Shown: positions 1,800-44,245 of the stretch, one piece after another
Layout: each line of letters begins with the position of its first letter
Position numbering within the stretch: the stretch's first letter is position 1
From: Candidatus Omnitrophota bacterium
GTDB taxonomy: Bacteria > Omnitrophota > Gorgyraeia > Zapsychrales > Fredricksoniimonadaceae
DNA: 64,000 nucleotides
Direction: 5' to 3'
NCBI GenBank assembly: GCA_015233335.1
Contig: JADFXX010000005.1
Location: 1,550-65,549 of the forward strand
Translations under genes and position numbers: made by a program
The notes under the pieces: generated by a model
The model's database searches: none
What the model saw: the letters and a program-made list of their open reading frames with translations, nothing else
What the model was told of the DNA's origin: nothing

Positions 1800-4286
1800 A
1801 TGCTACATAAATCCTTTTATCTCATACTGATAGCGATTTTTGCATGCACTTTGGTAACACCCGTTCCCCAAGCCAGCGCAGAGAGTCTTTTAAATCTGCC
1901 GGAACCGGGGATCATGGTAGATTTAAGTCCTGCCTATACTCCGGTCCTGATTAAAGGGCTCAAGGTCCACCCCGAAAATCCGTTTCTCTTTGATTTCATT
2001 ATAGATACGGGAAATGATATCTCGGATGTAACGCCATCTCTAGAAAAAGAATCCGAAAAGCTTGTTAAATATTTTCTGACGGCTATGACAGTGCCGGAAA
2101 AGGATTTATGGGTAAATTTGTCGCCGTATGAAAAAGACAGGATGATAGCTTCTAATTTATCCCAGACAGAAATGGGTCGTGATATGCTGGCGCAAGATTA
2201 TATCCTAAAACAACTGACAGCCTCTCTTATATATCCGGAAAAGAATTTGGGACGAACATTTTGGGATGAGATTTACAGCAAAGCCCGTCAGATGTATGGG
2301 GCAACAGAAATCCCTGTGAACACGTTTAATAAGGTATGGATCGTTGCGGACAAGGCAGATGTGTTTGAAGGGGATAATGTAGCATATGTGGTGGGGGCTC
2401 ACCTGAAGGTAATGCTGGAGGAAGATTATTTAGCATTGAAGGTGAAAGCATCCCAGGGGGAAAGCCCAGCCAACCAATTAGGTTCAAGCATCATCCGCGA
2501 AATTATTCTTCCTGCCATTGAAAAAGAAGTGAACCAAGGGAAGAATTTTGCTCCATTGCGACAGATGTTTTATTCGATGATACTTGCCAGCTGGTATAAG
2601 ATGGCGCTTAAGGACGCGATATTGACACAGGTTTATGGGGACCAGAGCAAGGTCAGGGTGGGGATCAACCAAGATGACCCTAAGGCCAATGAAGAGATAT
2701 TCAATCGTTATTTACGGGCGTATAAGAAAGGGGTATTTAATTATATCAAGGAAGATATTGACAAGATCAGCGGAGAAACGATTCCCAGGAAGTATTTTTC
2801 AGGGGGAGAAGCGATCTGGCAAAATATAAGGCCAAGGGTGGTTCATGCGGCTGACACTGCTATGTCAGGATTAAGAGATCATGCGGTCATCGCAACGGTG
2901 GATACTTTTCCCCGGGATGCGTCCATGAAGGCCCGAAAACATCAGAATTATTTAAAAACAGTGGTTTGGCAAAGCAAGACAGAAAATGATCAAGGGATAC
3001 CGGAAGTGCGTTACACCCGAGTGTCCACTTTGACCGTAGGCCCTGAGGAAGAAGAAGTTTTCTTAAAAGGGATATTAAAGAATAAAGATATTGTTCTTCT
3101 AACTAAAGAAACTGTCAGGGCGGCTCAAGACGGGAACACTAAAATTACACTCACAAGTGATAGGGGAATCATCCCTAAGAAATATTTGGGCCAAGAGGTT
3201 GTTCTTTCCGGTAATGTCGCTGAGGTACTTCCGGACTTCGAAGGCAGTGCTGAGGATTTGCCGCGCAAGCTTAGGGAGGCGCCTGAGGTTGCCATCAGGG
3301 TTAATGGAGTGTTTCGTGTGAGGGTCCATGACAGGGAGAAGGATCGTTATTTATATTTTTTAGTATTTAACAGAAAGGCCTTAGATCAGGGGAAATTTCG
3401 TCTTGTTAGTTTAGGGGGTGGTATCCGTTGGAAAAAAGGGGGCCTGGAATATTATAAAAAGAATGTGGACGGTCAGATGGATACGATAGAAGGGGAAGAC
3501 CCCCAAGATGTAAGGGTTAATATTCAAGGGAAAAATTTAGACAAGTTTTTTAAAAAGTTGAATGCAGGGGCGTTTGTTGAAGATAATGTCGATCACGAAC
3601 TAATAGATGAACTTAATGGGGAAAATGGTTTATTCCCAGAAGGTATTCCGAATCAATGGTTATCCGCAAAGGATGAAGCCATGTTGAATGGTTCACCAAA
3701 AGGGATAGATAAAGTGCATGATTTGATCACAGAAAAACAAATAACAAGGAAATATGCACAACAATATATTGAATCCCCAGACATAGCAGTTTCTGCAAGT
3801 CTTGACGGTCCCCGAGCTGCTAAATTAGTCGATGCCGTAAATGAGTTTAGAAGTAACGGTGAGCTGATTAGTTTAGTCTTTAAGGGGAGAGTTATAAATA
3901 TTAGTTCGACCCTTTTGCTTATTAGTTTAAGGGTGGCTCCAAATTCTATTGTGCGTGTAAGAATCGGTGGGGTTGGTGAGTTTGAGTCGCAACAAATAAT
4001 TAAAAAAGTGACGAAGGTGCTGACAGATCCTGCAATGATGGGTACACAAAATTCTCAAGAAAATCCGGGGGGGATTGATTTTAATTCCGAAAAAATGCAG
4101 ATGGACATTCAAAAAGAGAGATCGGGAGTGCAAATACACCCCGATCGTACGGTGTTCGATCGCATCAAGGCGGAAGGCTTTGAAGGACTTGAATTTAAAA
4201 TTGAGTCGATTGTGCCGATGACTAATTTGCCTCTACTGTTGGGGCTTAAGCCGCACCCCCAAGAGGGACAATTGGCCGGAGTTTAA
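1800..4286 (+). CDS. Secreted protein of unknown function (828 aa)
   Basis: Signal peptide MLHKSFYLILIAIFACTLVTPVPQASA/ES. I recognise no catalytic motif. Conserved-looking N-terminal block LPEPGIMVDLSPAYTPVLIKGLKVHPENPFLFDFIIDTG and C-terminal block NPGGIDFN...VPMTNLPLLLGL. Confidence 0.7.
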   Translation: MLHKSFYLILIAIFACTLVTPVPQASAESLLNLPEPGIMVDLSPAYTPVLIKGLKVHPENPFLFDFIIDTGNDISDVTPSLEKESEKLVKYFLTAMTVPEKDLWVNLSPYEKDRMIASNLSQTEMGRDMLAQDYILKQLTASLIYPEKNLGRTFWDEIYSKARQMYGATEIPVNTFNKVWIVADKADVFEGDNVAYVVGAHLKVMLEEDYLALKVKASQGESPANQLGSSIIREIILPAIEKEVNQGKNFAPLRQMFYSMILASWYKMALKDAILTQVYGDQSKVRVGINQDDPKANEEIFNRYLRAYKKGVFNYIKEDIDKISGETIPRKYFSGGEAIWQNIRPRVVHAADTAMSGLRDHAVIATVDTFPRDASMKARKHQNYLKTVVWQSKTENDQGIPEVRYTRVSTLTVGPEEEEVFLKGILKNKDIVLLTKETVRAAQDGNTKITLTSDRGIIPKKYLGQEVVLSGNVAEVLPDFEGSAEDLPRKLREAPEVAIRVNGVFRVRVHDREKDRYLYFLVFNRKALDQGKFRLVSLGGGIRWKKGGLEYYKKNVDGQMDTIEGEDPQDVRVNIQGKNLDKFFKKLNAGAFVEDNVDHELIDELNGENGLFPEGIPNQWLSAKDEAMLNGSPKGIDKVHDLITEKQITRKYAQQYIESPDIAVSASLDGPRAAKLVDAVNEFRSNGELISLVFKGRVINISSTLLLISLRVAPNSIVRVRIGGVGEFESQQIIKKVTKVLTDPAMMGTQNSQENPGGIDFNSEKMQMDIQKERSGVQIHPDRTVFDRIKAEGFEGLEFKIESIVPMTNLPLLLGLKPHPQEGQLAGV

Positions 4287-5944
4287 GGTTTTCTTTTAAA
4301 TATCATCACGCCGTGATTATTGGCCCAGCCGGGCGGCTGGGTCCAGTCTCCTCCCTGGCGGGCTATGGGGGAGAAGTTATCATGGATATATTGGGCGATC
4401 AGGGGGCAGTAAGTTTTACCGAATACGCCTAAGCCGGGTTCATTAGAAATGAAGCGGTTGGACATGATGACGTAACTTATTTTTTTGGTTTCCAGTTCTT
4501 TGATCACCTCAATTTCCTGCGAGCGCGGTATTTTGATATGATCAAAGTAGATCAACTGGCGTGTAGGACTTTCATGCCCGCTTAAATAGTAGTAGAGACA
4601 GTCGTAAGGCAGGGCAAAAAAATAGTCGTCTTTTTTGAGCGTGGTGTTCAAGAAATGGCTGACGGTATTGACGGTATCTGTCCATTGGGGTTCATTGTTG
4701 ACATAAACCCCGCCCCTTTCCATGTTTAAATAGTGCCCGGGATTCTTTTGGCTTTCAATCGATCCGATATGTGCCACAACCCCAAGAATCGCCAGTCCCC
4801 ATAAAAATATCAGGATCAATATACGTAAGAATTTAGGGGTAAATTTAAAAGCGAGGGATATCATCACAAAGTGAAATAAATCCAGAAAAGGCATAGACCA
4901 ATAGGTACGATACCAGATCCCGCTGACTAAAAATTCATTAAAATAGAGAACAAAAGAAAGCCCGAGTACCCCAAGTGTTAATAATATGTTTTGACGGTAT
5001 GTTTTCTCGAGTTTATTGGAAAGCAGCAGGTACAACCCAAAAAGCGTGCAACCGTGCAGAATAACACTGATGGTCATATTACTGGCGATCAGTACACACA
5101 GACCAATGAGCAGGGATTTGTGCAGGGCGATGTCAACGGACATAGCACTATGGACTAATGTCAGCCAATGCTGGGTCAAATAATAGGGGACGACCAAAAG
5201 CGGGGAGGCATGATAGGGCTGGTCATCACCGAAATAAGGCATGCATTGGCGGATGGCGTAAAGCGGCAGATCTTTGAGAAGTACCCAGTAAATAATACCC
5301 AGCCCCAAGGGTATAAAAAGAGCTGTTAGCCAATAAAATTTTTTCTTTTGCCCAAACGAAGAGTATTTTTTGAATCCGTCAATACAAAAAGTCGCAAGCC
5401 CAATGCCCGCTAAAGCCGCTAACCCGAAGTTAATTTTAATTAGTCCTAAAATAAAGCCCGTGATGATAGCGATCCATAAATAACGCATGGATCCCTTCAA
5501 GATATAGGATAAAAGACACCAGAGGATGATAAGCTCTGCGGTGATACCGCCGATGTGATTATATGTAAAGAAGAATTCCTGACGGGTTTCGGTAAACCAG
5601 GCAGCGGCCAGATACGCCAGGCCTGGCGACATGATGCACGTTGCGGATAAATAAAAAAAGGCAGAACATGCGATCACAAGCAAAGCCCGGCCTAAAAATA
5701 CGCTAGTCATATGCACCCCAAAAATCTTAAAGAACAGGCCGTAATAATACGGCATGAGAGGGCCGTAGACCCACCAGAAGTCTTTGTAAGGTAATTTTCC
5801 ATGAGTGACCGCATCAAAAGCGTATAGATCACGGCCGTGGTCTCCTTGAGACAGCAGGTCCTGAAAGTTCAGCTCAGGCCAGACAAAAATCCCAGCGGTC
5901 AGGATAGTTAAAAGGAGAAAAATGACTTTTGGAGTAAATTTCAT
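4283..5944 (-). CDS. Polytopic membrane protein, putative GT-C-fold (ArnT/PMT-like) glycosyltransferase, tandem paralog 1
   Basis: Many TM helices. First-loop block QGDHGRDLY...LPYKDFWWVYGPLMPYYYGLF resembles the acidic first periplasmic loop of GT39/GT83 enzymes. Soluble C-terminal domain. Start is either ATG at 5944 (MKFTPK) or TTG at 5950. The functional call is tentative. Confidence 0.55.
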   Translation of the reverse strand: MKFTPKVIFLLLTILTAGIFVWPELNFQDLLSQGDHGRDLYAFDAVTHGKLPYKDFWWVYGPLMPYYYGLFFKIFGVHMTSVFLGRALLVIACSAFFYLSATCIMSPGLAYLAAAWFTETRQEFFFTYNHIGGITAELIILWCLLSYILKGSMRYLWIAIITGFILGLIKINFGLAALAGIGLATFCIDGFKKYSSFGQKKKFYWLTALFIPLGLGIIYWVLLKDLPLYAIRQCMPYFGDDQPYHASPLLVVPYYLTQHWLTLVHSAMSVDIALHKSLLIGLCVLIASNMTISVILHGCTLFGLYLLLSNKLEKTYRQNILLTLGVLGLSFVLYFNEFLVSGIWYRTYWSMPFLDLFHFVMISLAFKFTPKFLRILILIFLWGLAILGVVAHIGSIESQKNPGHYLNMERGGVYVNNEPQWTDTVNTVSHFLNTTLKKDDYFFALPYDCLYYYLSGHESPTRQLIYFDHIKIPRSQEIEVIKELETKKISYVIMSNRFISNEPGLGVFGKTYCPLIAQYIHDNFSPIARQGGDWTQPPGWANNHGVMIFKRKP

Positions 5945-5978
5945 AAACAATATATTTTCACACTTTAGGGGAATGTAA

Positions 5979-6101
5979 GGATATGTTTTTTATAAGGCCT
6001 GCTACCCCACAGGCGCACAGGGGCTGCTTATAACTATAGCCCCGAAGCGCCGAGCTTGTGGGGATGGGGGTCATGCGTCCGGCCTTAGAAAGAATATATC
6101 C
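5979..6101 (-). repeat. Copy A of a ~122-nt TIR-bounded structured repeat (MITE/REP-like or intercistronic RNA element)
   Basis: Its reverse complement aligns with 15899-16020 with about nine substitutions/indels by hand alignment. Termini GGATATATTCTTTCTAAGGCC / GGCCTTATAAAAAACATATCC are inverted repeats. The arms are rich in C4-6/G4-6 runs and the core is AT-rich (TATAGTTATA). Confidence 0.85.
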
Positions 6102-7715
6102 TTATATTCCCTTACGCCTAAGAATCAGTGTCCCGTGATTCCACGCCCAGCCGGGCTCATTAGTCCAGTCCCCGAATTGGGCTATGGGAATGAAATTGTC
6201 TTGAATATATTTTCCGATCAGAGGGCAGTAGGTCTGCCCTAAAAATCCGAGTCCCAACTCCTGACGGACGTAAGCACGACTTGAGAGCACGACATAATTT
6301 ACGTGATTTCTTTCCAAATCGGCTATCACGGATTTTTCCTGTGCGGTCGGAATCTTGATATGTTCAAAAAAGATCAACTGGCGTGTAGGCGTTTTTTTAT
6401 CTGTCAGGAAATAATAGAGGCAGTCATAGGGAAGGGCAAAAAATAATTCATCCGGTTTTAGTGTTTTATTTAAGAAATCAGTAGTCTCCCTCACAGTGGC
6501 GATCCAGGCGGGGGAGTTGGTTAGGTAGATATCCCCTCGGGGGAGGTTTAAGTACTGGCCTTCTGTTTTTAAGGTATTTAAATGAGGCAGAACTGACCAC
6601 CAGGAGAATGCGATGAGAATGGCAATACAAAAGAAAATCATTCTGCGCATTATTTTATGAATGCTTTGGGCGGCTGTGTCAATGAGCACAAAAGAGATCA
6701 TCATACTCAAAGGTTGGGCCCAGAAAGCCCGGTACCAGACGCCGCTTTTAAGAAATTCATGAAAATTAAACACATAAAACAGGCAAAGCATGCCTAAGGA
6801 CAATCCCAAGGTGATTTTACGAGTGGGGGCCAATTTATTTTTCGCAAAGAGGTATAAACACCGCAGGCCGCTGGCATTGATCAAAACGGCAAAGGTAAGA
6901 TTCGGCCAGTTGGATGTCGCAGTACGAAAAGTTATTTTTAAAAAATTAATGATCGCAAGCCACGGACTTGTACTATACGGCTGATCTCCCTCCATATAAG
7001 GAAGGCATTGGCGTATTTCAGTTACCGACAGATTTTTTAAAAGAGACCAGTATATGCCATAGACTAAAAGAGGTAGGCCTATGAGGCCTAAAGCATAAAA
7101 GAGTTTTTTGGTCGTATTGAACGTAAGCTTGCGGACAAAATCGCATACCGCCACTGTTATGACACACATGGCAAGTGCGGCTAAGCCGAAATTGATCTTG
7201 ATGAGACACAACAGAAAGACAAGGGTAAGCGCACCCCATGCAAATTTAAGACGGAGGTTTTGAATATAAGATAACAGGCAAAAAACAATTCCCAAAATCA
7301 CGACTATGCCGCCTAAGTGATTATAAGTAAAGAAAAAGTCCTGGGCAAAAAGCATGAACCAACAGGCCGTCAGGAAAGCGGCGCTCAAGGAGCTTATTTC
7401 CGTCATGGCAAGACAAATGAGGACTCCACCTAGAATTTTGAGCAGCAGCTTCCCTAAGATAATGCTGCTGATGTGGATTCCGAAGATTTTATAAAATAAG
7501 CCATAATAATAGGGCATCAAGGGGCCGTAGACCCACCAGAAATCTTTGTAAGGGAGCTCTCCTCGATATACTGCCTGAGCGGCGTAAAGGTCTCTGCCAT
7601 GGTCGCCTTGAGAGAGGAATTCCTGAAAGCGGACATAGGGGGCACTGATGATAATTCCAGCCAATAGAACTGAAAGTAAAATTAAGCATTTGGCGTGTTG
7701 TTTAATGAAATGCAT
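6102..7715 (-). CDS. Polytopic membrane protein, putative GT-C-fold glycosyltransferase, tandem paralog 2
   Basis: 77 of 122 residues are identical to paralog 1 in an ungapped hand alignment of the N-terminal block (FQEFLSQGDHGRDLY...LLSYI). Same C-terminal domain (YCPLIGKYIQDNFIPIAQFGDW). Confidence 0.55.
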   Translation of the reverse strand: MHFIKQHAKCLILLSVLLAGIIISAPYVRFQEFLSQGDHGRDLYAAQAVYRGELPYKDFWWVYGPLMPYYYGLFYKIFGIHISSIILGKLLLKILGGVLICLAMTEISSLSAAFLTACWFMLFAQDFFFTYNHLGGIVVILGIVFCLLSYIQNLRLKFAWGALTLVFLLCLIKINFGLAALAMCVITVAVCDFVRKLTFNTTKKLFYALGLIGLPLLVYGIYWSLLKNLSVTEIRQCLPYMEGDQPYSTSPWLAIINFLKITFRTATSNWPNLTFAVLINASGLRCLYLFAKNKLAPTRKITLGLSLGMLCLFYVFNFHEFLKSGVWYRAFWAQPLSMMISFVLIDTAAQSIHKIMRRMIFFCIAILIAFSWWSVLPHLNTLKTEGQYLNLPRGDIYLTNSPAWIATVRETTDFLNKTLKPDELFFALPYDCLYYFLTDKKTPTRQLIFFEHIKIPTAQEKSVIADLERNHVNYVVLSSRAYVRQELGLGFLGQTYCPLIGKYIQDNFIPIAQFGDWTNEPGWAWNHGTLILRRKGI

Positions 7716-7760
7716 AACGGCATTTTAGAAGACCAGATGCAGATTGTAAAGGTATAACAA

Positions 7761-8762
7761 TTAATTGTCGGTAAGGGCGAACGGCTTCATGCGCAGGTTG
7801 CATTTTTTGAACAACAGGCGTCCGGCGCCTAAACAAAGCCCCAATAACCATGCGGTGTCCCTCATAGGCATGAAAAGAAAAAGTCCAAGCGCAGTTTTGT
7901 AGTTTTCATATCGGGCAATAAAATTCAAAAACGGAGCATTAACTATACCGTAGAGAGCCATCAGCAGGACAGGAAAGGCCCAGCATGCCGGATTGACCAA
8001 AATGAGCAACACGCTCAAATAAAAACCCGCCATGAGAAGTAAATTTCCGGCAATTTCATGGTTAGACCAGGTGGCTTTTCTTTTGAGAAAATCTTTTTGT
8101 GCCCATGCGATCGGCACCAGCCCGGCCATCCATTGGATGTGTTTCGCAAAATATTTATTTAAAGATGTATTAAAATAATGGGCCACCCCGTTATTTTTAT
8201 CCCATTTAATTTTATGTTTACGGCTAATAGCCAGACCCAAGGCGGTATCCTCTCCAAAAAAAGCCGGTAAAAAGCCGCCGGATTCGTCAAAGGCTTTTTT
8301 AGTGCATCCAAAATTGGCGCTGATACATATGTCGATAAAATCAGGCGTATTTCTTTGGCGAAAAAGGGTGTCATAGAATTGAAAAAGGGCAAAAGTTTCA
8401 CGGTTTTGAGACTTATGATAACCGGCACTGACCGCTGCCGTCCCGTCAGTTAGGCTTGAAATGATCCTGTTTAACCATTCCGGTTCCACCCGGCAATCAG
8501 CATCAGTAAAAACTAAAATACGGCCACTTGCCTCGCGGGCACCGGCATTGCGGCTGGCTCCGGGGCCGGCATTGGAGGGAAGTCTGATGATACGGCAATT
8601 TAAGTTTTTGAGTAACTCGCAGGAATCATCTGTGCTCACATCATCAACAACGATACATTCAAAATGAGGGTAGGAGCAGGCCAGAATACTTTTCACACAG
8701 GTTTGGATCGTATTCCGGGCGTTATGGCAGGGTACGATCACAGAGATTTTAGGGGTGCTCAT
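7761..8762 (-). CDS. Family 2 glycosyltransferase with C-terminal TM helices (GtrB/ArnC/CsbB-like polyprenyl-phosphate sugar synthase architecture)
   Basis: KISVIVPCHNARNTIQTCVKSILACSYPHFECIVVDDVSTDDS and the FTDADCRV (DxD) motif. Hydrophobic C-terminus (NLLLMAGFYLSVLLILV..., LFLFMPMRDTAWLLGLCLGAG). ATG at 8762 overlaps the upstream stop as ATGA; an alternative start is at 8777. Confidence 0.8.
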   Translation of the reverse strand: MSTPKISVIVPCHNARNTIQTCVKSILACSYPHFECIVVDDVSTDDSCELLKNLNCRIIRLPSNAGPGASRNAGAREASGRILVFTDADCRVEPEWLNRIISSLTDGTAAVSAGYHKSQNRETFALFQFYDTLFRQRNTPDFIDICISANFGCTKKAFDESGGFLPAFFGEDTALGLAISRKHKIKWDKNNGVAHYFNTSLNKYFAKHIQWMAGLVPIAWAQKDFLKRKATWSNHEIAGNLLLMAGFYLSVLLILVNPACWAFPVLLMALYGIVNAPFLNFIARYENYKTALGLFLFMPMRDTAWLLGLCLGAGRLLFKKCNLRMKPFALTDN

Positions 8763-9865
8763 GAAAACAGGCGGCATAGGATTTTAGGGTAAAGCAGGGG
8801 GTTAAGTGTGATATTCCACAGAGCAGCACATTCAAAAGTACAGGCGCAGCGGGTTTTATGAATGTGCTCGATGATTTGTCTGTATTTTTGAGTTTTGAGG
8901 ATGGAGTTAATATCATAATTGTGTCTACGCAGATCGCCCATGACAAAATCCTGGTCCGGCTTTAATTGTTTTAACATCTCACAGGGCACGACAAGTCCGT
9001 CATCAGTGATGGTAAGGATCCGCCTGCCGGCAACACAGGGGAGGACCATTTTCTGGGTTGCTAAGAATTGGCTGTTGATTTCCATCATCATGTTCAGCAA
9101 GACCTGCATCAGGCCTTTTTGAGAATTATTTTGCTGGTATAGATATTTCATGATGGCTTCGTATTCGGGTATGGTTACGTCCTTGGTGGCCGGTTCCCGG
9201 GCATTTCCACGGGCCAAGCCTATGCTGTGCGCATCGGGCTTAAGCTCATTTTTGACATAGTCAATGATGGTTTTCATGTCATCTTTGTTATAAGAATTGA
9301 GTACCGAGGATACGACCAAGACCAGATTCTTGTGCTTTTTTTTGAGTTCATTGAGTTTGGACAATGTCTGGACCATTTTGTTAAAATTGCCGGGGACAGC
9401 CCGGATATGGTCGTGTTTCTCTCCGATATGGTCGATGGAAAGATTGATCTTAAGCAGAATATCAGGGCATTTTGTTAATACGGAATACGCGATTTCAGCG
9501 GTCTTCTGGGGTAAAAGTCCGTTGGTCGTAAAATTAACATAGCGACTCGAGCTGTTTTTATAAAATAAGTGAATGATCTCATCTAAATCATCGCGCAGGG
9601 TGGGCTCACCTCCGGCTAAGCTGATGTAGGCCAAATTTTTAAAACCCTTGGTGATGCGTTCAATTTCTCTGATGGAAAGTAAGCCCCGCTCTTTGAATGC
9701 ATCGATCTCTTTCCAATAAAAGCACATGCGGCAGCGGGCATTGCATTGAGCCGTGACGAAGAAGATCAAATAGGTGAATCGTCCGAAACTTAAGGAACGT
9801 AAAAGATGATAGTAGCGGCTTAAGGAAAAATTCTCGATTTTTTTCTTTGGGGATACGGGAGTCAA
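8759..9865 (-). CDS. Radical SAM protein with SPASM/twitch-like C-terminal Cys cluster
   Basis: CNARCRMCFYW (CxxxCxxC), GGEPTLRDD, and C-terminal cysteines LPCVAGRRILTITDDGLVVPCE ... TRCACTFECA. Confidence 0.8.
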   Translation of the reverse strand: MTPVSPKKKIENFSLSRYYHLLRSLSFGRFTYLIFFVTAQCNARCRMCFYWKEIDAFKERGLLSIREIERITKGFKNLAYISLAGGEPTLRDDLDEIIHLFYKNSSSRYVNFTTNGLLPQKTAEIAYSVLTKCPDILLKINLSIDHIGEKHDHIRAVPGNFNKMVQTLSKLNELKKKHKNLVLVVSSVLNSYNKDDMKTIIDYVKNELKPDAHSIGLARGNAREPATKDVTIPEYEAIMKYLYQQNNSQKGLMQVLLNMMMEINSQFLATQKMVLPCVAGRRILTITDDGLVVPCEMLKQLKPDQDFVMGDLRRHNYDINSILKTQKYRQIIEHIHKTRCACTFECAALWNITLNPLLYPKILCRLFS

Positions 9866-14617: not shown

Positions 14618-15889
14618 ATGGTTCAATACTCCCTGCGCTTTGCGGGGGATGCCTTCAATATTTTTCGTATTTTTAAAGACCAGCCGAATGCGTTCTTCTT
14701 AGACAGCAGTCTTGATCGTTCACAAACACGTTTCTCTTATATCGGGTTTGATCCGTTTACTACAATATCCGCCTGTGAATTATCCCAATTAAAGAAAAAT
14801 TTCAATCAACACCGGTTTTCTCAGAAGGCAAGCCGCCTTTCTTTTCCCGCCGGAGCGGTCGGGTATTTGGGATTCGACGGTTCTTTATTTTTTGGATTTT
14901 ACGATACCATTTTGACGGTGGATCATAAGGCCCGCAGGCTTATTGTCTCAAGTCTTTCAAAAAATCGTTTGAAAGATGTTTTAAGAAGTTTGCATCAAAC
15001 GCTAATGCCTCAGAGGGTCTCCAAGCCATTTTCAAAACAGCTTGATTTTATAAGCAATTTTACTAAGGCAGGCTATATAGAAGCCGTGCGCTCTGCTCTG
15101 GAGCACATACGCCGTGGGGACATTTATCAGATCAACCTCTCTCATCAAATCAGGGTGAACCTGCCGTCTTGGCGCCGGTATGCCGAACCCACGGATCTAT
15201 ATGGAGCTTTACGTAGGTTTTTCCCATCGGAATTTGGGGCTTATTTTGATGATGGGAGGCAGGTCATTTTAAGCGCTTCGCCGGAAAGATTTTTGAGGTT
15301 GCAAAAAGATATCGTTCAAGTCAAACCGATGAAGGGTACGAGGCCACGCGGAAAAAATAAAATTCAGGACCGGAATTTTAGAGAAGAGCTGCTCAAGAGC
15401 CCTAAAGAAATTGCTGAACTTCTGATGGTGACAGACCTGGAACGCAATGATCTGGGCCGTGTCTGTGATTATTCGTCGGTTAAGGTCAAGGCCATGCGAA
15501 CGATCGAGACTTACGCATCCGTGTTCCAGGCCACGTCTACGGTCGAGGGGCGTCTCTACAAGGGTTTTGACCAGTTTGACCTTCTGAAGGCCGCCTTTCC
15601 CAGCGGGTCCGTAACCGGCTGTCCTAAAATAGAGGCGATGAAAATTATCAAAAAGTTAGAGCACGGTCCTCGAGGACTTTATACCGGGGCGCTTGGGTAT
15701 ATTAGTTTTTCGGGAAACATGGATTTTAATGTGATGATACGTACAATGTTTTTAAAACGCGATGAGATAACTTTTCATGTGGGTGGGGGAATTGTGGCAG
15801 ATTCCAAGCCGCAGACCGAGTGGCAGGAAACTTGGATCAAGGCCCAGCCGTTAATGGATGCGCTTAATAAAATATTTAGGCGTGTGTAA
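14618..15889 (+). CDS. pabB: Aminodeoxychorismate synthase component I (chorismate-binding enzyme)
   Basis: PMKGTRPRG, TDLERNDLGRV, GSVTGCPKIEAMKII, GLYTGALGY. Followed by pabC. Confidence 0.8.
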   Translation: MVQYSLRFAGDAFNIFRIFKDQPNAFFLDSSLDRSQTRFSYIGFDPFTTISACELSQLKKNFNQHRFSQKASRLSFPAGAVGYLGFDGSLFFGFYDTILTVDHKARRLIVSSLSKNRLKDVLRSLHQTLMPQRVSKPFSKQLDFISNFTKAGYIEAVRSALEHIRRGDIYQINLSHQIRVNLPSWRRYAEPTDLYGALRRFFPSEFGAYFDDGRQVILSASPERFLRLQKDIVQVKPMKGTRPRGKNKIQDRNFREELLKSPKEIAELLMVTDLERNDLGRVCDYSSVKVKAMRTIETYASVFQATSTVEGRLYKGFDQFDLLKAAFPSGSVTGCPKIEAMKIIKKLEHGPRGLYTGALGYISFSGNMDFNVMIRTMFLKRDEITFHVGGGIVADSKPQTEWQETWIKAQPLMDALNKIFRRV

Positions 15890-15898
15890 AAGCCAACA

Positions 15899-16020
15899 GG
15901 TATATTTTTTCTAAGGCCGGACGCACGACCCCCATCCCCACAAGCTCGGCGCTTCGGGGGTATAATTATAAGCACCCCCCTGTGCGCCTGTGGGGTAGCA
16001 GGCCTTAGAAAAAACATACC
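15899..16020 (+). repeat. Copy B of the ~122-nt TIR-bounded structured repeat
   Basis: GGTATATTTTTTCTAAGGCC ... TATAATTATA ... GGCCTTAGAAAAAACATACC. The TIRs match at 19 of 20 positions. It lies between the pabB stop and the pabC start. Confidence 0.85.
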
Positions 16021-16047
16021 CGTCGGCTTCTTTGCGAAAAGTTTATT

Positions 16048-16791
16048 ATGAGATACACGATATTCTTAGACGGAAAATATATTTTTGTGACCCCGAGGGT
16101 TCTTCGGTCATTGACGCCCGGAGTTTTTAAGGCCAAAGGGGTTTTTGAAACGATGCTGGCACTGGACGGGGTGATTCTTGACGCTGATTTGCATTTGCGT
16201 CGACTTTGCAGGGGGCTTAAGGTTTTAGGGGTCCCACGACCATCAATCGATCCATCGTTATTTAAAAAAATATTAGTTCAAAATCATCTTTTGTGCGCCC
16301 GAGTGAGGATTATGGTATGGCAAGAGGGCAGTGAGGCCCATGTGATGGCCTCGGCACAACCTTATAAGATTTCTAACAAAAAAAAATATCACGTTTGTCT
16401 GGTTAAGACTGATCGCCTGGCTTCTGCTCGTTTTTCCGATGTAAAATCCTTAGACTATAGCATGTTCGCCGCAGCTTATGCCTATGCCAAAACGCATGGG
16501 TATGATGAGGCTCTTTTACTTAATCGTCACGATCACATTGTTGAAGCCAGCCGTGCTAATATTTTTTGGATCAAAAATAGTATTTTATATACGCCCCCAT
16601 TGACATCAGGATGTTTAAACGGCATAACACGTAGGCAAGTTATACGGATGGTGCGACGTTTAAAAATTCCTCTGAAAGAGAAGAATTTAACGCTGGAAAT
16701 GTTAAATAAAGCTGATGCCGCGTTTTTGACTAGTTCCCTTATAGGGATCAAGCCGATCAATGTTGCTTTATATGAAAGGATAGATAAATAA
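16048..16791 (+). CDS. pabC: Aminodeoxychorismate lyase / class IV aminotransferase
   Basis: EASRANIFWIKNSILYTPPLTSGCLNGITR (fold-type IV PLP motif). Adjacent to pabB. Confidence 0.7.
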   Translation: MRYTIFLDGKYIFVTPRVLRSLTPGVFKAKGVFETMLALDGVILDADLHLRRLCRGLKVLGVPRPSIDPSLFKKILVQNHLLCARVRIMVWQEGSEAHVMASAQPYKISNKKKYHVCLVKTDRLASARFSDVKSLDYSMFAAAYAYAKTHGYDEALLLNRHDHIVEASRANIFWIKNSILYTPPLTSGCLNGITRRQVIRMVRRLKIPLKEKNLTLEMLNKADAAFLTSSLIGIKPINVALYERIDK

Positions 16792-35435: not shown

Positions 35436-36898
<1,463 letters not shown>

Positions 36899-36938
36899 GA
36901 ATTCCGCTAATCGGGTAGTTGAGTACTTTGTTTCGGAC

Positions 36939-36977
36939 AAAAGGCCAGCTGTGAAAAAAACGCAGCTGGCCTTTTTT
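36939..36977 (+). terminator. Rho-independent terminator after gap (A-tract/T-tract, potentially bidirectional)
   Basis: AAAAGGCCAGCTG - 11-nt loop - CAGCTGGCCTTTTTT. A perfect 9-bp GC-rich stem followed by T6. Confidence 0.85.
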
Positions 36978-36999
36978 ATAAAGTGCCACAAATAATCCC

Positions 37000-37027
37000 T
37001 TGACCATACTCAATTTTTGGTTATAAT
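37000..37027 (+). promoter_or_regulatory. Sigma70-type promoter of the glycan supercluster
   Basis: TTGACC (37000-37005), 16-nt spacer, TATAAT (37022-37027). It sits directly after the gap terminator. Confidence 0.65.
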
Positions 37028-37042
37028 GTTCAATTATTGAAC
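37028..37042 (+). promoter_or_regulatory. Perfect 7-1-7 palindrome, candidate operator for the adjacent wHTH regulator
   Basis: GTTCAAT-T-ATTGAAC lies between the -10 box and the ATG at 37044. Confidence 0.5.
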
Positions 37043-37043
37043 A

Positions 37044-37622
37044 ATGTATCCCATTATGCCCAATAAGCTTTTAAACGAACGTGAATTTGAACTGGTCAAC
37101 ATTGTAGGTGCCAGGCTTGCGGCCAATCAGCGCGATCTCTCCCGCCACATGAATCTTTCTTTAGGAATGACCAATATGCTTTTAAGGCGGTTGGTGACTA
37201 AAGGCTACATCCGTATCAAGCAACTTGACCGTCGTAAAGTCGAATACCTATTGACCCCCAAAGGGTTTGCGGAGAAGATGCGCAAGTCCGTCAAATACAC
37301 GCTAAACACCATTAATTCCATAGGGTTAATTAAAAAGCAGCTTTTAGATATTTTGGAAAGCCTTTATACAAAAGGCCACAGGAAGTTTTATATTTTAGGC
37401 GATTCAGATTTTGCCCAATTGGTGGAGAGTTCTTTAGTACAGTTTCAATGGGTTGGGGTTGAAGTTAAACGGATTAAATCTCAATTGGAAAATCCTGATG
37501 GACTGGTGCTTATTTGCCGAGAAGATGAAGATAGTCCGGGATCAGGCGGGGAGCGTTATGTGGATTTGATTAAAGAATTGGCTAGCCATAAGAATAACGG
37601 ATTTGCGGCTGTAGAGAGGTAA
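37044..37622 (+). CDS. Winged-helix (MarR-like) transcriptional regulator with an uncharacterised C-terminal domain
   Basis: QRDLSRHMNLSLGMTNMLLRRLVTKGYIRIKQLDRRKVEYLLTPKG (HTH plus wing). First gene of the cluster. No SD; a near-leaderless start is possible. Confidence 0.6.
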   Translation: MYPIMPNKLLNEREFELVNIVGARLAANQRDLSRHMNLSLGMTNMLLRRLVTKGYIRIKQLDRRKVEYLLTPKGFAEKMRKSVKYTLNTINSIGLIKKQLLDILESLYTKGHRKFYILGDSDFAQLVESSLVQFQWVGVEVKRIKSQLENPDGLVLICREDEDSPGSGGERYVDLIKELASHKNNGFAAVER

Positions 37623-42395: not shown

Positions 42396-43427
42396 ATGTT
42401 AGCAGCGATACTGGTAGAATCCCGGAAGCCTTTGGTTTTAGATGAAGTCCAACTGCCCTTGTCCCTGGAATACGGTCAGGTGCTTGTTAAGGTGTTTTAT
42501 ACCGGCATTTGCGGGGCACAGATCAATGAGATCGAAGCACGTAAGGGGCCGGATAAATTTTTGCCTCATTTGTTGGGGCACGAAGGCGGTGGGGTCGTTG
42601 AATCCTGCGGTCCGGGGGTCACGACGGTCAAACCAGGTGACCATGTTGTCATGCATTGGCGTCCGGGGCGTGGTATACAGTCTCCCACACCGAAATACCT
42701 TTGGAAGGGAAAGCCCATCAATGCGGGCTGGGTGACGACATTCAACGAAAAGGCGATCGTCTCGGAAAATCGGGTTACCGTGATCCCCAAAGATTTCGAC
42801 CTTAAATTGGCGGCTCTTTATGGATGTGCTATTACCACCGGCTATGGTGTCGTCCATAACGATGCCCGTTTAAAAAGCGGGGAATCGTTAGTGGTCGTAG
42901 GGGCGGGGGGCGCCGGTATGTCCGTTATATTAATGGCATCCCTGATAGGTGCAAATCCCATTATTGCCGTCGATATCCATGATGATAAGCTTAAACAAGC
43001 CAGGAAGTTTGGCGCCACGCACGTCATTAATTCTAAAAAAGAAAACACTGTTGAAAAAATAAGGCAGGTTCTTCCTCAGGGGGCTGATGTGGCGGTCGAC
43101 GCTACCGGAATTAAAGAAATCCGGGAGCTTTGTTATGAGTTGGCTTCGGGCATGGGACGTACTGTATTAGTCGGGGTACCGTTAGCCGGAGAGAAAATCA
43201 CCATTGATTCTTTTCCCTTACATTTTGGTAAAAGCATTACCGGATCTCACGGCGGAGATGTCAACCCGGACTATGTCATTCCCCGTTTGATCTCTTTGCA
43301 AAACACCGGACGCCTTTCTTTAGATGGGATGATTTCCCATGAATTTCCGTTTAACCGGATTAACGAAGCTCTGGATATGGTGCGACGGGGGGAAGCGTTG
43401 CGTTGTGTCTTACAGATGGCACACTAA
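42396..43427 (+). CDS. Zinc-dependent medium-chain alcohol dehydrogenase
   Basis: GICGAQ..., LGHEGGGVVESCGPGV, Rossmann VVVGAGGAGMSV. Confidence 0.85.
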   Translation: MLAAILVESRKPLVLDEVQLPLSLEYGQVLVKVFYTGICGAQINEIEARKGPDKFLPHLLGHEGGGVVESCGPGVTTVKPGDHVVMHWRPGRGIQSPTPKYLWKGKPINAGWVTTFNEKAIVSENRVTVIPKDFDLKLAALYGCAITTGYGVVHNDARLKSGESLVVVGAGGAGMSVILMASLIGANPIIAVDIHDDKLKQARKFGATHVINSKKENTVEKIRQVLPQGADVAVDATGIKEIRELCYELASGMGRTVLVGVPLAGEKITIDSFPLHFGKSITGSHGGDVNPDYVIPRLISLQNTGRLSLDGMISHEFPFNRINEALDMVRRGEALRCVLQMAH

Positions 43428-43468
43428 CAGATCGGGTATTATTTTTCATTCTACTTGAGGAGTAAGTC

Positions 43469-44245
43469 ATGGATTTAGGAATTAAGGGAAAATTAGCATT
43501 AGTGACGGGTGGCGGTAGGGGTATTGGTCGGGCTATAGCGATGTGTTTAGCTCGGGAAGGAGCACGCGTTGCCGTTGTATCGAGAACAGAGGAAGATGTG
43601 AAGGAAACCGTTGAAGTCATGGGGGGCCGATCGGCTGGTCATCACGGCATAGTGATGGATTTGTCCCCAGATGAGGCCCCGGGACTTTTAGTCAAGGATT
43701 TAAGGGCCAATTTCGGTGATCCGGCGATTGTGGTGCATAATCTTGGCGGGACATTGGGTATCACCGACCCTTTTTGTTCGCGGGAGGAATGGCGGCGAGT
43801 CTATCGTTTTAATTTTGAGATTGCGGTTGAATTGAATGTTTATTTAGTGCCCGGCATGCAGAAGGCTAAATGGGGACGTGTTATTCATATTTCTTCGATT
43901 TCAGCGATGGAGAACCATGGGCCGGCAACGTACTGTGCGATGAAAGCAGCTTTGACGGCGTATACGCGTAGTTTCGGCGGCTATGTGGCTGCGGATGGGG
44001 TGATGGTTTCTGCTGTTCTTCCGGGGGCTGTTTTTACAGAAAAAGGGTATTGGGATATCACTTCCAGGGAGAGGCCGGAACATGTCAAAAAATATCTGAC
44101 TGAGCGTCAACGTATCGGCCGATTCGGAAAAACTGACGAGATCGGTAATTTTGTTGCTTTTCTTTGTTCCCAGCAGGCTTCTTTCAATCCCGGGAGTGTC
44201 ATTCCGATTGATGGTGGACAAGGCAGAGGGTATTTTGGGCAATAA
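43469..44245 (+). CDS. Short-chain dehydrogenase/reductase (classical SDR)
   Basis: LVTGGGRGIGRAIA, YCAMKAAL (YxxxK). Confidence 0.85.
   Translation: MDLGIKGKLALVTGGGRGIGRAIAMCLAREGARVAVVSRTEEDVKETVEVMGGRSAGHHGIVMDLSPDEAPGLLVKDLRANFGDPAIVVHNLGGTLGITDPFCSREEWRRVYRFNFEIAVELNVYLVPGMQKAKWGRVIHISSISAMENHGPATYCAMKAALTAYTRSFGGYVAADGVMVSAVLPGAVFTEKGYWDITSRERPEHVKKYLTERQRIGRFGKTDEIGNFVAFLCSQQASFNPGSVIPIDGGQGRGYFGQ

Follow-up and report, generated by a model that had tools for sequence, protein, structure and literature searches.

A previously undescribed, probably MITE-type palindromic repeat at stop codons in operons of Candidatus Omnitrophota

Introduction

Bacterial miniature inverted-repeat transposable elements, or MITEs, have been described as non-coding elements of less than 200–300 bp, which have terminal inverted repeats and a terminal TA and which give rise to hairpin RNA (PMC2229807). 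The present paper describes a palindromic repeat that occurs in two copies, A and B, in a 64,000-nucleotide (nt) stretch of a Candidatus Omnitrophota genome (contig JADFXX010000005.1, positions 1,550 to 65,549; hereafter the window). These copies belong to a family of MITE-type palindromic repeats from Candidatus Omnitrophota that had not been described before; it represents a known kind of bacterial repeat and no new kind of system. The element is probably a MITE-like mobile palindrome that is co-transcribed in Omnitrophota operons. Omnitrophota, a phylum that is widespread but uncultured, comprises very small bacteria which are possibly predators or parasites, and a full-text literature search found no described repeat or mobile-element family from it.

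Correia elements (NEMIS/CREE) of Neisseria are non-coding palindromes of 100–155 bp with terminal inverted repeats of approximately 26 bp and TA ends; they are mostly intergenic, are co-transcribed with their neighbours and form a long hairpin that is cleaved by RNase III (PMC2229807, PMC10969869). The Omnitrophota element resembles them in its size, palindromic character, TA-bounded inverted repeats, intergenic place and hairpin. However, it has no sequence similarity to them and comes from a different phylum, and neither an IHF site nor promoter boxes, which are Correia traits, were detected in it. Correia elements are present in hundreds of copies, whereas the Omnitrophota family apparently has few per genome; in addition, the latter strongly prefers one orientation relative to transcription, its GC-rich core is invariant and its position at the stop codon is fixed.

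ERIC sequences (IRU, RU-1) have a 127-bp consensus that Enterobacteria and Vibrio have in common. They are imperfect palindromes of transcribed intergenic regions, often at the 3' ends of genes, and their effect on the upstream mRNA is orientation-dependent, an RNase E site in the 3' arm being unmasked in a ribosome-dependent way (De Gregorio 2005, summarised in PMC2229807 and PMC10969869). Similar size, an imperfect palindrome and a place 3' of a gene are shared with the Omnitrophota element. The two differ in sequence: ERIC is carried by E. coli, and blastn (word size 11, E ≤ 0.01) detected nothing similar to the element in 5,426 genomes of this species; plasmids and phages gave no match either. 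We know of no ERIC fixation at the stop codon itself. By analogy, the element would work most like Correia and ERIC, being co-transcribed and forming a hairpin with orientation-dependent effects on RNA, but it is a member of neither.

Further relatives in kind are found among other bacterial repeats. RUP of Streptococcus pneumoniae is a non-coding element of ~107 bp with terminal inverted repeats and TA insertion, thought to be mobilised in trans by an IS630-family transposase (PMC2229807). The terminal inverted repeats and TA ends of the Omnitrophota element are like those of RUP and of IS630-derived MITEs. However, the partner insertion sequence is known for RUP and none was found for the Omnitrophota element in the sequence examined; RUP, on the other hand, has no reported structural or functional signature, whereas in the Omnitrophota family the stem covaries and the core is conserved to an unusual degree. 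YPAL (RU-2) of Yersinia, a 168-bp intergenic palindrome with internal inverted repeats, is known from filled and empty sites and targets sites at or near dyad symmetries (PMC2229807). It is comparable to the Omnitrophota element in size and in having filled and empty sites between relatives, but it has no terminal TA, makes duplications of 3–26 bp and shares no sequence similarity. REP, BIME and REPIN sequences are also GC-rich extragenic palindromes of transcribed intergenic regions, form hairpins, persist vertically and have a GTAG by the stem (PMC3733652). REPs are nevertheless only 20–40 nt long (REPIN doublets ~70–110 nt), have a GTAG or CGTC head and an associated RAYT gene, lack long TA-bounded inverted repeats and are usually very numerous, and no RAYT gene was present among the 19 window open reading frames (ORFs) scanned.

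Extent, anatomy and distribution of the family

The initial annotation had reported a repeat of ~122 nt which is present twice in the window and does not belong to a known Rfam family. The repeat proved to be real: the reverse complement of 5979–6101 aligns with 15899–16021 at ~93 % identity, the similarity ends abruptly on both sides and the flanks cannot be aligned. Its length had been underestimated, as the inverted repeat runs ~10–13 nt further on each side, to give ~140–150 nt (Table 1). A repeat search of the window found copies A and B only, and the terminal inverted repeats, the local pairings of C and G runs and the centre (TATAGTTATA / TATAATTATA) were recognised in the sequence as reported. 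Rfam 15 gave no matches at gathering thresholds over the window, nor at E ≤ 10 for copy B ± 100 nt on both strands. The arms of copies A and B (85 and 90 % complementary, respectively) are the two longest local inverted repeats of the window. Another inverted repeat, at 43198–43505 with TAAGGGAA-like arms, lies in coding DNA and was rejected as a chance match.

Altogether the family has 18 copies: two in the window, two in Omnitrophota metagenome-assembled genomes (MAGs), 13 on metagenome contigs and one found via an ORF call. At least 16 copies thus lie beyond the window, all of them from Candidatus Omnitrophota MAGs or from metagenomes. A scan of one genome per GTDB species with an exact 20-mer of the left core gave true copies in two Candidatus Omnitrophota MAGs only (L002 and L003); a Rhizobiaceae hit (L001) was a chance match of the 20-mer in coding DNA. 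An independent 20-mer of the right core detected 13 loci in metagenomes, seven of them from one sample, and viral contigs did not match the element. A profile built from 12 full copies matched copy A at 5967–6113 on the minus strand (164.9 bits, against 45.5 bits on the other strand) and copy B at 15891–16033 on the plus strand (140.7 bits), so that the two orientations are separated by the profile at ~165 versus ~45 bits. Additional, more diverged copies were detected neither in the window nor in ~230 kb of loci. In our best interpretation the family is restricted to a clade of Candidatus Omnitrophota.

That only two copies lie in the window and that one MAG copy abuts a run of Ns might suggest that the repeat arose by chance duplication or through faulty assembly, without a family behind it. 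This explanation is refuted by the 18 copies from independent assemblies and at least seven samples, with sharp boundaries and different flanks, and its probability is negligible. In the MAG concerned (JABDGZ010000013) the N-run, at 113–135 of locus L002, is 12 nt upstream of the element and the locus starts inside the element; judging from this N-run, the repeat may break or confuse assemblies.

The anatomy, identities and pair counts given here are based on one alignment of the copies (A2). Across the family the element is 140–170 nt long, and most copies are bounded by TA. Next to the ends is a variable, AU-rich outer helix of 25–35 bp (GGGAAnnnAAGGATAT / ATATCCTTnnnTTCCC), which in some copies extends further (GCATGA.../...TTTAGC), followed by a conserved inner inverted repeat (ATATTTTTTCACGGCC / GGCCTTATCAAAAA) and a C-rich bulge on the 5' side (GGACGCAYGACCCCCAT), 7 nt of which are missing in three copies. 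The core (columns 71–130 of A2) is invariant and consists of three short GC helices capped by a small apical hairpin. The mean pairwise identity was 27–30 % in the flanks, 73–75 % in the outer arms, 84–89 % in the inner parts and 94 % in the core.

Evidence for mobility

The initial annotation had proposed either a MITE with a target or orientation preference or a functional intercistronic RNA element, and this proposal gained support from the MITE features described below, with a functional RNA kept alive as an option. What had been named in advance as speaking against it was not what was found: additional copies exist, their orientation is non-random, no described family matches and the stem covaries. 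As in MITEs, the element is short and non-coding, has terminal inverted repeats in all full copies, is dispersed with unrelated flanks and is present or absent at an orthologous site.

Three loci (L007, L010 and L013) have identical ends and unrelated flanks, which suggests recent copying. TA is found on both sides of the inverted repeat in seven full copies (copy A, L003, L004, L007, L008, L010 and L011), and L013 and L015 have TA on one side and TG on the other. When copy A and one TA were excised in silico, the end of the upstream gene changed from '...RRKGI*' to '...RRKV*', which is the same length as the '...KRKP*' of its paralog, and the spacer to the next ATG became 13 nt.

In the window the junction between pabB and pabC is filled: the element separates the two genes, which are 158 nt apart. 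The junction is empty in two relatives, L018 and L021, where the genes overlap at ATGA. The same junction in another relative, L017, the pabC of which is 73 % identical, contains a different palindrome of ~235 nt (9355–9590; −111 kcal/mol, z −12.7). It was not accepted as a family member, since its resemblance is limited to short end motifs (TAGCATG..., ...CACGG) and it goes undetected by the profile; several palindrome families in Omnitrophota may prefer the same junctions. In L019 (9836–10000) and L020 (1532–1696) the pabB–pabC gap contains a small GC hairpin (CCCTCCCCTTTGTGGGGAGGG) and an apparent decayed duplicate of the 5' end of pabC. The large membrane proteins of L018 were considered as orthologs of the genes flanking copy A, but they are not homologous and thus give no second empty site.

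Variants of the element were also found. L005 (1575–1775) has kept the family ends, while a different 92-nt palindrome replaces the left core segment. L012 (2118–2180) and L009 (3117–3153) consist of right halves only, which abut stop codons, and the right core of L012 is of the L005 type (ACAGACCC). These two were rejected as the right end of a large transposon: the DNA upstream of them consists of ordinary genes, which end at a stop directly before the truncated right half.

Position and orientation

The element starts 0–12 nt from the stop codon of the upstream gene, and once 65 nt from it (12 copies). With the shorter 122-nt boundaries, copy A begins 0 nt past the TAA at 6102–6104 and copy B 9 nt past the TAA at 15887–15889, and the next start codon is 27–34 nt downstream of both, as had been noted initially. 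In the full element the upstream stop is within the 5' base of the hairpin (copy A) or 1 nt before it (copy B). The 5' arm of copy A includes the final two codons of the upstream gene together with its stop, which is located at +10 counted from the first paired base.

An upstream gene is visible for 12 copies, and each of these is co-oriented with it (11 independent loci when orthologs are merged). The scans were blind to strand, and the two-sided binomial p for 11:0 is ~0.001. The initial description of the repeat as always co-oriented with transcription was borne out for the two window copies and for each of the 11 independent loci that the DNA scans gave, but not for one reversed copy, L022 (1932–2075). 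This is the only one found; it lies between two genes, and the upstream stop is again inside the arm. L022 was found by searching called ORFs for the peptide of the sense frame and not by the DNA scan. The orientation preference is thus strong but not absolute. At this locus the gene caller had put a 72-amino acid (aa) ORF (P0121) on the sense strand of the element, overlapping the end of the true upstream gene.

A link of orientation to replication was rejected. The GC skew is positive across the entire window (0.07–0.19) and does not switch at the strand change at 9.9 kb, yet copies A and B are on opposite strands and each is oriented like its own operon. Orientation therefore follows transcription, not replication.

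The element is not a small-protein gene, since its frame shows no conservation and has hardly ever been annotated as a gene. As the initial annotation had observed, the ATG of the 38-codon frame of copy A is ACG in copy B; the ATG is missing in many other copies as well, a 1-nt indel breaks the frame in copy B, and the peptide of the sense frame was found as a single called ORF among 5.8 billion proteins. Nor is the element a canonical transcription signal: neither a sigma-70-like promoter nor an intrinsic terminator was found in copies A and B on either strand, and in both orientations the T-run comes before the GC stem and the A-run after it. Such scans are meaningful for this organism because a canonical terminator and promoter were found at 36935–37029. 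A textbook intrinsic terminator (AAAAGGCCAGCTG...CAGCTGGCCTTTTTTAT) is located there 3' of the GAPDH gene (35837–36898) and is followed by a TTGACC-17-TATAAT promoter ahead of a MarR-like ORF (37044–37622), which, judged from the sequence, shows that the organism uses canonical signals.

Paired changes and conservation of the stem and core

The sense RNA of copies A and B was predicted to fold in each case into a single long hairpin, of −62.3 kcal/mol (z −5.55) and −65.7 kcal/mol (z −7.24), respectively, and none of 200 shuffled sequences was as stable in either case. In an explicit structure of 54 pairs, 88.6 % of the cells were paired on the sense strand. Seventeen of the 54 pairs were altered on both sides, compared to 8.5 in shuffles (0 of 500 reached 17) and 3–6 in slid controls, and 14 of these 17 fall in the 25-bp outer helix. 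Copy B provides an example: the outer part of its 3' arm is unlike that of the other copies and is matched by its 5' arm (GGGAA/TTCCC to GCCAA/GTCGGC). In the core, the apical position is occupied by a U-A pair in 10 copies and by a C-G pair in four, and no copy is intermediate; pair 95–111 is CG in 13 copies and GC in one. The two inner helices (helices 4 and 5) are invariant in 14 copies and, because they never vary, are uninformative on pairing.

Two pairs of orthologous loci from different samples were available. Between L004 and L006 the identity at third codon positions of the flanking genes is 52–58 %, while that of the element is ~90 % and that of the core ~93 %. Between L003 and L011 the values are 53.5 %, ~82 % and ~97 %, respectively, and at least five paired substitutions have accumulated in the diverging outer helix. 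The short spacer next to the element cannot be aligned between orthologous loci. Furthermore, the core is identical between genomes whose PabC proteins are 63 % identical.

These observations speak in favour of a co-opted, host-selected RNA module acting in cis, irrespective of how mobile its origin was. Its invariant core would be a sequence-specific binding or processing site, displayed on the covarying stem where the upstream cistron ends, that sets the relative expression or stability of the cistrons. The outer helix diverges and yet stays paired (14 of its 25 pairs changed on both sides), the apical pair covaries cleanly, and position and orientation are fixed relative to the upstream stop and track transcription. 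Quasipalindrome template-switch repair can, however, yield paired changes without any RNA function, as can conversion from arm to arm without selection on the RNA, and the invariant inner helices say nothing about pairing. In addition, the stem mismatches are A.C and not G.U in the sense RNA, the pabB–pabC junction shows gain and loss, i.e. turnover, a reversed copy exists, and the core appears to be replaceable, since L005 retains the ends with a different core segment. We regard such a module as a possible but rather improbable explanation, and that the host actually uses the element as similarly doubtful. The excess conservation reflects either host selection or the overwriting of resident copies, by gene conversion or by re-insertion at permissive junctions, by a family that needs the core for its spread.

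Strand asymmetry

In 11 of 12 copies the antisense strand of the element has a more stable fold than the sense strand, the difference being 10–23 kcal/mol. In copies A and B the antisense folds reached −83 and −84 kcal/mol (z ~−9.3), with an uninterrupted outer helix of 26–29 bp, because all transition mismatches are A.C on the sense side and hence G.U on the antisense side. In the outer helix family-wide, the sense strand has 25 A.C cells (11 columns) compared to 9 G.U cells (5 columns), an excess which is suggestive but not significant when counted by columns. On the 54-pair structure 95.4 % of the cells were paired in antisense, although the difference to the sense strand is inflated, as antisense folds had served to derive this structure. 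A few mismatches shared by descent account for most of the asymmetry. It is shown also by the reversed copy L022 and therefore belongs to the element.

A mutational bias does not account for the A.C excess: with a replication bias, copies A and B should show opposite signs, and with deamination of the non-template strand, G.U would be expected in the sense strand; neither fits. Our preferred reading of the asymmetry is that inside operons only the orientation with the weaker, interrupted RNA helix is tolerated; alternatively, a DNA hairpin of the bottom strand may matter for mobility.

The asymmetry bears on two further explanations. One is an antisense RNA as the functional product, which would be transcribed from the opposite strand to that of the flanking genes and form a near-perfect hairpin with G.U wobbles; the more stable fold and the larger share of paired cells could be taken to speak for it. 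Yet no promoter- or terminator-like site was found on either strand, though canonical ones exist in the genome, the modelled structure came from antisense folds, the mismatches represent few independent events, and the element is located within tight operons, where antisense transcription would be unusual. This explanation is very improbable.

The other is a DNA-level palindrome of the REP/BIME/REPIN type, recognised by a host protein (gyrase or IHF-like) or by a RAYT/HUH-type enzyme acting on a single-strand hairpin. Recognition of a hairpin on one strand would explain the better folding of the bottom strand, which is seen in 11 of 12 copies, gives an uninterrupted helix in both window copies and is the element's own. 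Also, a GTAG adjoins the core helix (GGGGTAGC), and GTAG-tagged REPs are a described super-family (PMC3733652). However, the ends are MITE-like, with long TA-bounded terminal inverted repeats, and the length of ~150 nt (compared to 20–40 nt) and the few copies are unlike REP. Transposition as single strands (IS200/IS605) is expected to track replication, whereas the orientation of the element tracks transcription. A scan of 19 window ORFs gave no Y1 transposase, and the asymmetry is not significant by independent columns. We consider a DNA-level palindrome improbable, if somewhat less so than an antisense RNA. An integron attC site shares with the element the better folding of the bottom strand only; this candidate was rejected, as the ends AGGGAAC...GTTCCCT do not fit RYYYAAC/GTTRRRY and the copies occur singly in housekeeping operons and not in arrays.

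Interpretation and significance

We thus favour a MITE-like mobile palindrome that is co-transcribed in operons, and the course of events may be pictured as follows. The element would insert at a TA, very often the TA of a stop codon or one adjoining it in a tight operon, and its first base (A or G) would rebuild the stop codon after the insertion. Judging from its position, it would then be transcribed within the operon mRNA, where the segment is expected to fold into a long hairpin with the AU-rich outer helix of 25–35 bp holding the upstream stop at its base and with the GC-rich core of three helices. Such folding would bring the upstream stop and the next start spatially together. Copies seem to persist almost solely when oriented so that the RNA helix is the weaker one, interrupted by mismatches; the opposite orientation would put perfect double-stranded RNA of 26–29 bp into the message. 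By analogy to Correia and ERIC, the likely outcome at the RNA level would be RNase cleavage or altered decay at the cistron boundary.

Several points weigh against this interpretation. The core is the most conserved part (94 %) and the outer arms the least (~74 %), although an element driven by a transposase should conserve its termini most. In a decaying selfish insertion, the core of orthologous copies should not be as conserved as it is here, unless gene conversion or repeated insertion takes place. The A.C excess in the outer helix of the sense strand is a further such point. The TA duplication is a putative one, suggested by the flanks and one in-silico excision. No autonomous partner with matching ends, i.e. 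a cognate insertion sequence sharing the inverted repeats, was found in the ~300 kb examined (the window and 22 loci), nor were separated left and right ends found around a gene in the same sequences. Finally, the copy number is low, the core 20-mer being present once in each of the two GTDB representative genomes which carry the element.

A bolder, tentative proposal would combine mobility and function: the element may be a mobile cis-regulatory RNA cassette, in which the invariant, GC-rich three-helix core of ~60 nt offers an Omnitrophota-specific factor a site for binding or cleavage and is carried, on the covarying stem, to operon stop codons by a TA-targeting MITE. The host may keep one orientation as the element sets cistron-specific mRNA processing, or translation termination and re-initiation. 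In a variant of this proposal, the better-folding bottom strand may reflect a single-strand hairpin step in mobility, which, if true, would be new for a TA-bounded MITE.

The family is of practical use as a lineage marker; it may cause assembly breaks, and it gives rise to spurious C-terminal extensions or small ORFs in annotation. It provides a natural example of a palindromic insertion that is tolerated in a genome of overlapping genes, presumably by hitting the stop codon, rebuilding it and folding away. The orientation rule, the conservation above the synonymous level and the strand asymmetry make it a testable case for the old question of whether bacterial MITEs are simply tolerated or have been recruited as regulators at the RNA level, and the stop-codon fixation, transcription-linked orientation and over-conserved core make it a good test case for MITE domestication.

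Neighbouring genes and other features of the window

Table 1 Coordinates of the two copies of the element, their parts and the flanking genes in the window
Feature	Position	Strand	Description
Copy A, full element	5966..6114	-	149 nt with the terminal TA...TA counted; flanked by two membrane-protein genes that are tandem paralogs
Copy A, 5' arm (outer helix and inner inverted repeat)	6081..6114	-	TAAGGGAATATAAGGATATATTCTTTCTAAGGCC; 34 nt
Copy A, invariant GC-rich core	6001..6063	-	CCCCACAAGCTCGGCGCTTCGGGG, apical hairpin, then CCCCTGTGCGCCTGTGGGGTAGC
Copy A, 3' arm (outer helix and inner inverted repeat)	5966..5999	-	GGCCTTATAAAAAACATATCCTTACATTCCCCTA; 34 nt
Copy B, full element	15890..16029	+	140 nt; between pabB-like and pabC-like genes
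Copy B, 5' arm (outer helix and inner inverted repeat)	15890..15918	+	AAGCCAACAGGTATATTTTTTCTAAGGCC; 29 nt; starts 1 nt past pabB-like TAA 15887-15889
Copy B, same invariant core	15936..15999	+	compared to copy A: 1-nt insertion, G/C flip in apical stem
Copy B, 3' arm	16001..16029	+	GGCCTTAGAAAAAACATACCCGTCGGCTT; 29 nt
Gene upstream of copy A	6102..7715	-	537 aa, membrane protein, paralog of 4283-5950; C-terminal 'GI*' encoded by element
Gene downstream of copy A	4283..5950	-	555 aa, matches PMT_2 weakly
Gene upstream of copy B	14618..15889	+	aminodeoxychorismate/anthranilate synthase component I-like (Chorismate_bind), pabB-like
Gene downstream of copy B	16048..16791	+	class IV aminotransferase, pabC-like; identical to an NCBI protein from a Candidatus Omnitrophica MAG

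The tandem paralogs which flank copy A are 46 % identical, and both are membrane proteins. No tRNA genes were found in the 64-kb window. An ORF of 828 aa on the plus strand (1800–4286) has a sub-threshold match to a SMODS-associated NUDIX domain (22 bits, compared to the cut-off of 25) and is otherwise unannotated. The minus-strand genes of the window are restricted to 708–1619 and 4283–9865, and the genes in the ~53 kb between 9954 and 63317 are all on the plus strand, many of them with overlapping stops and starts.

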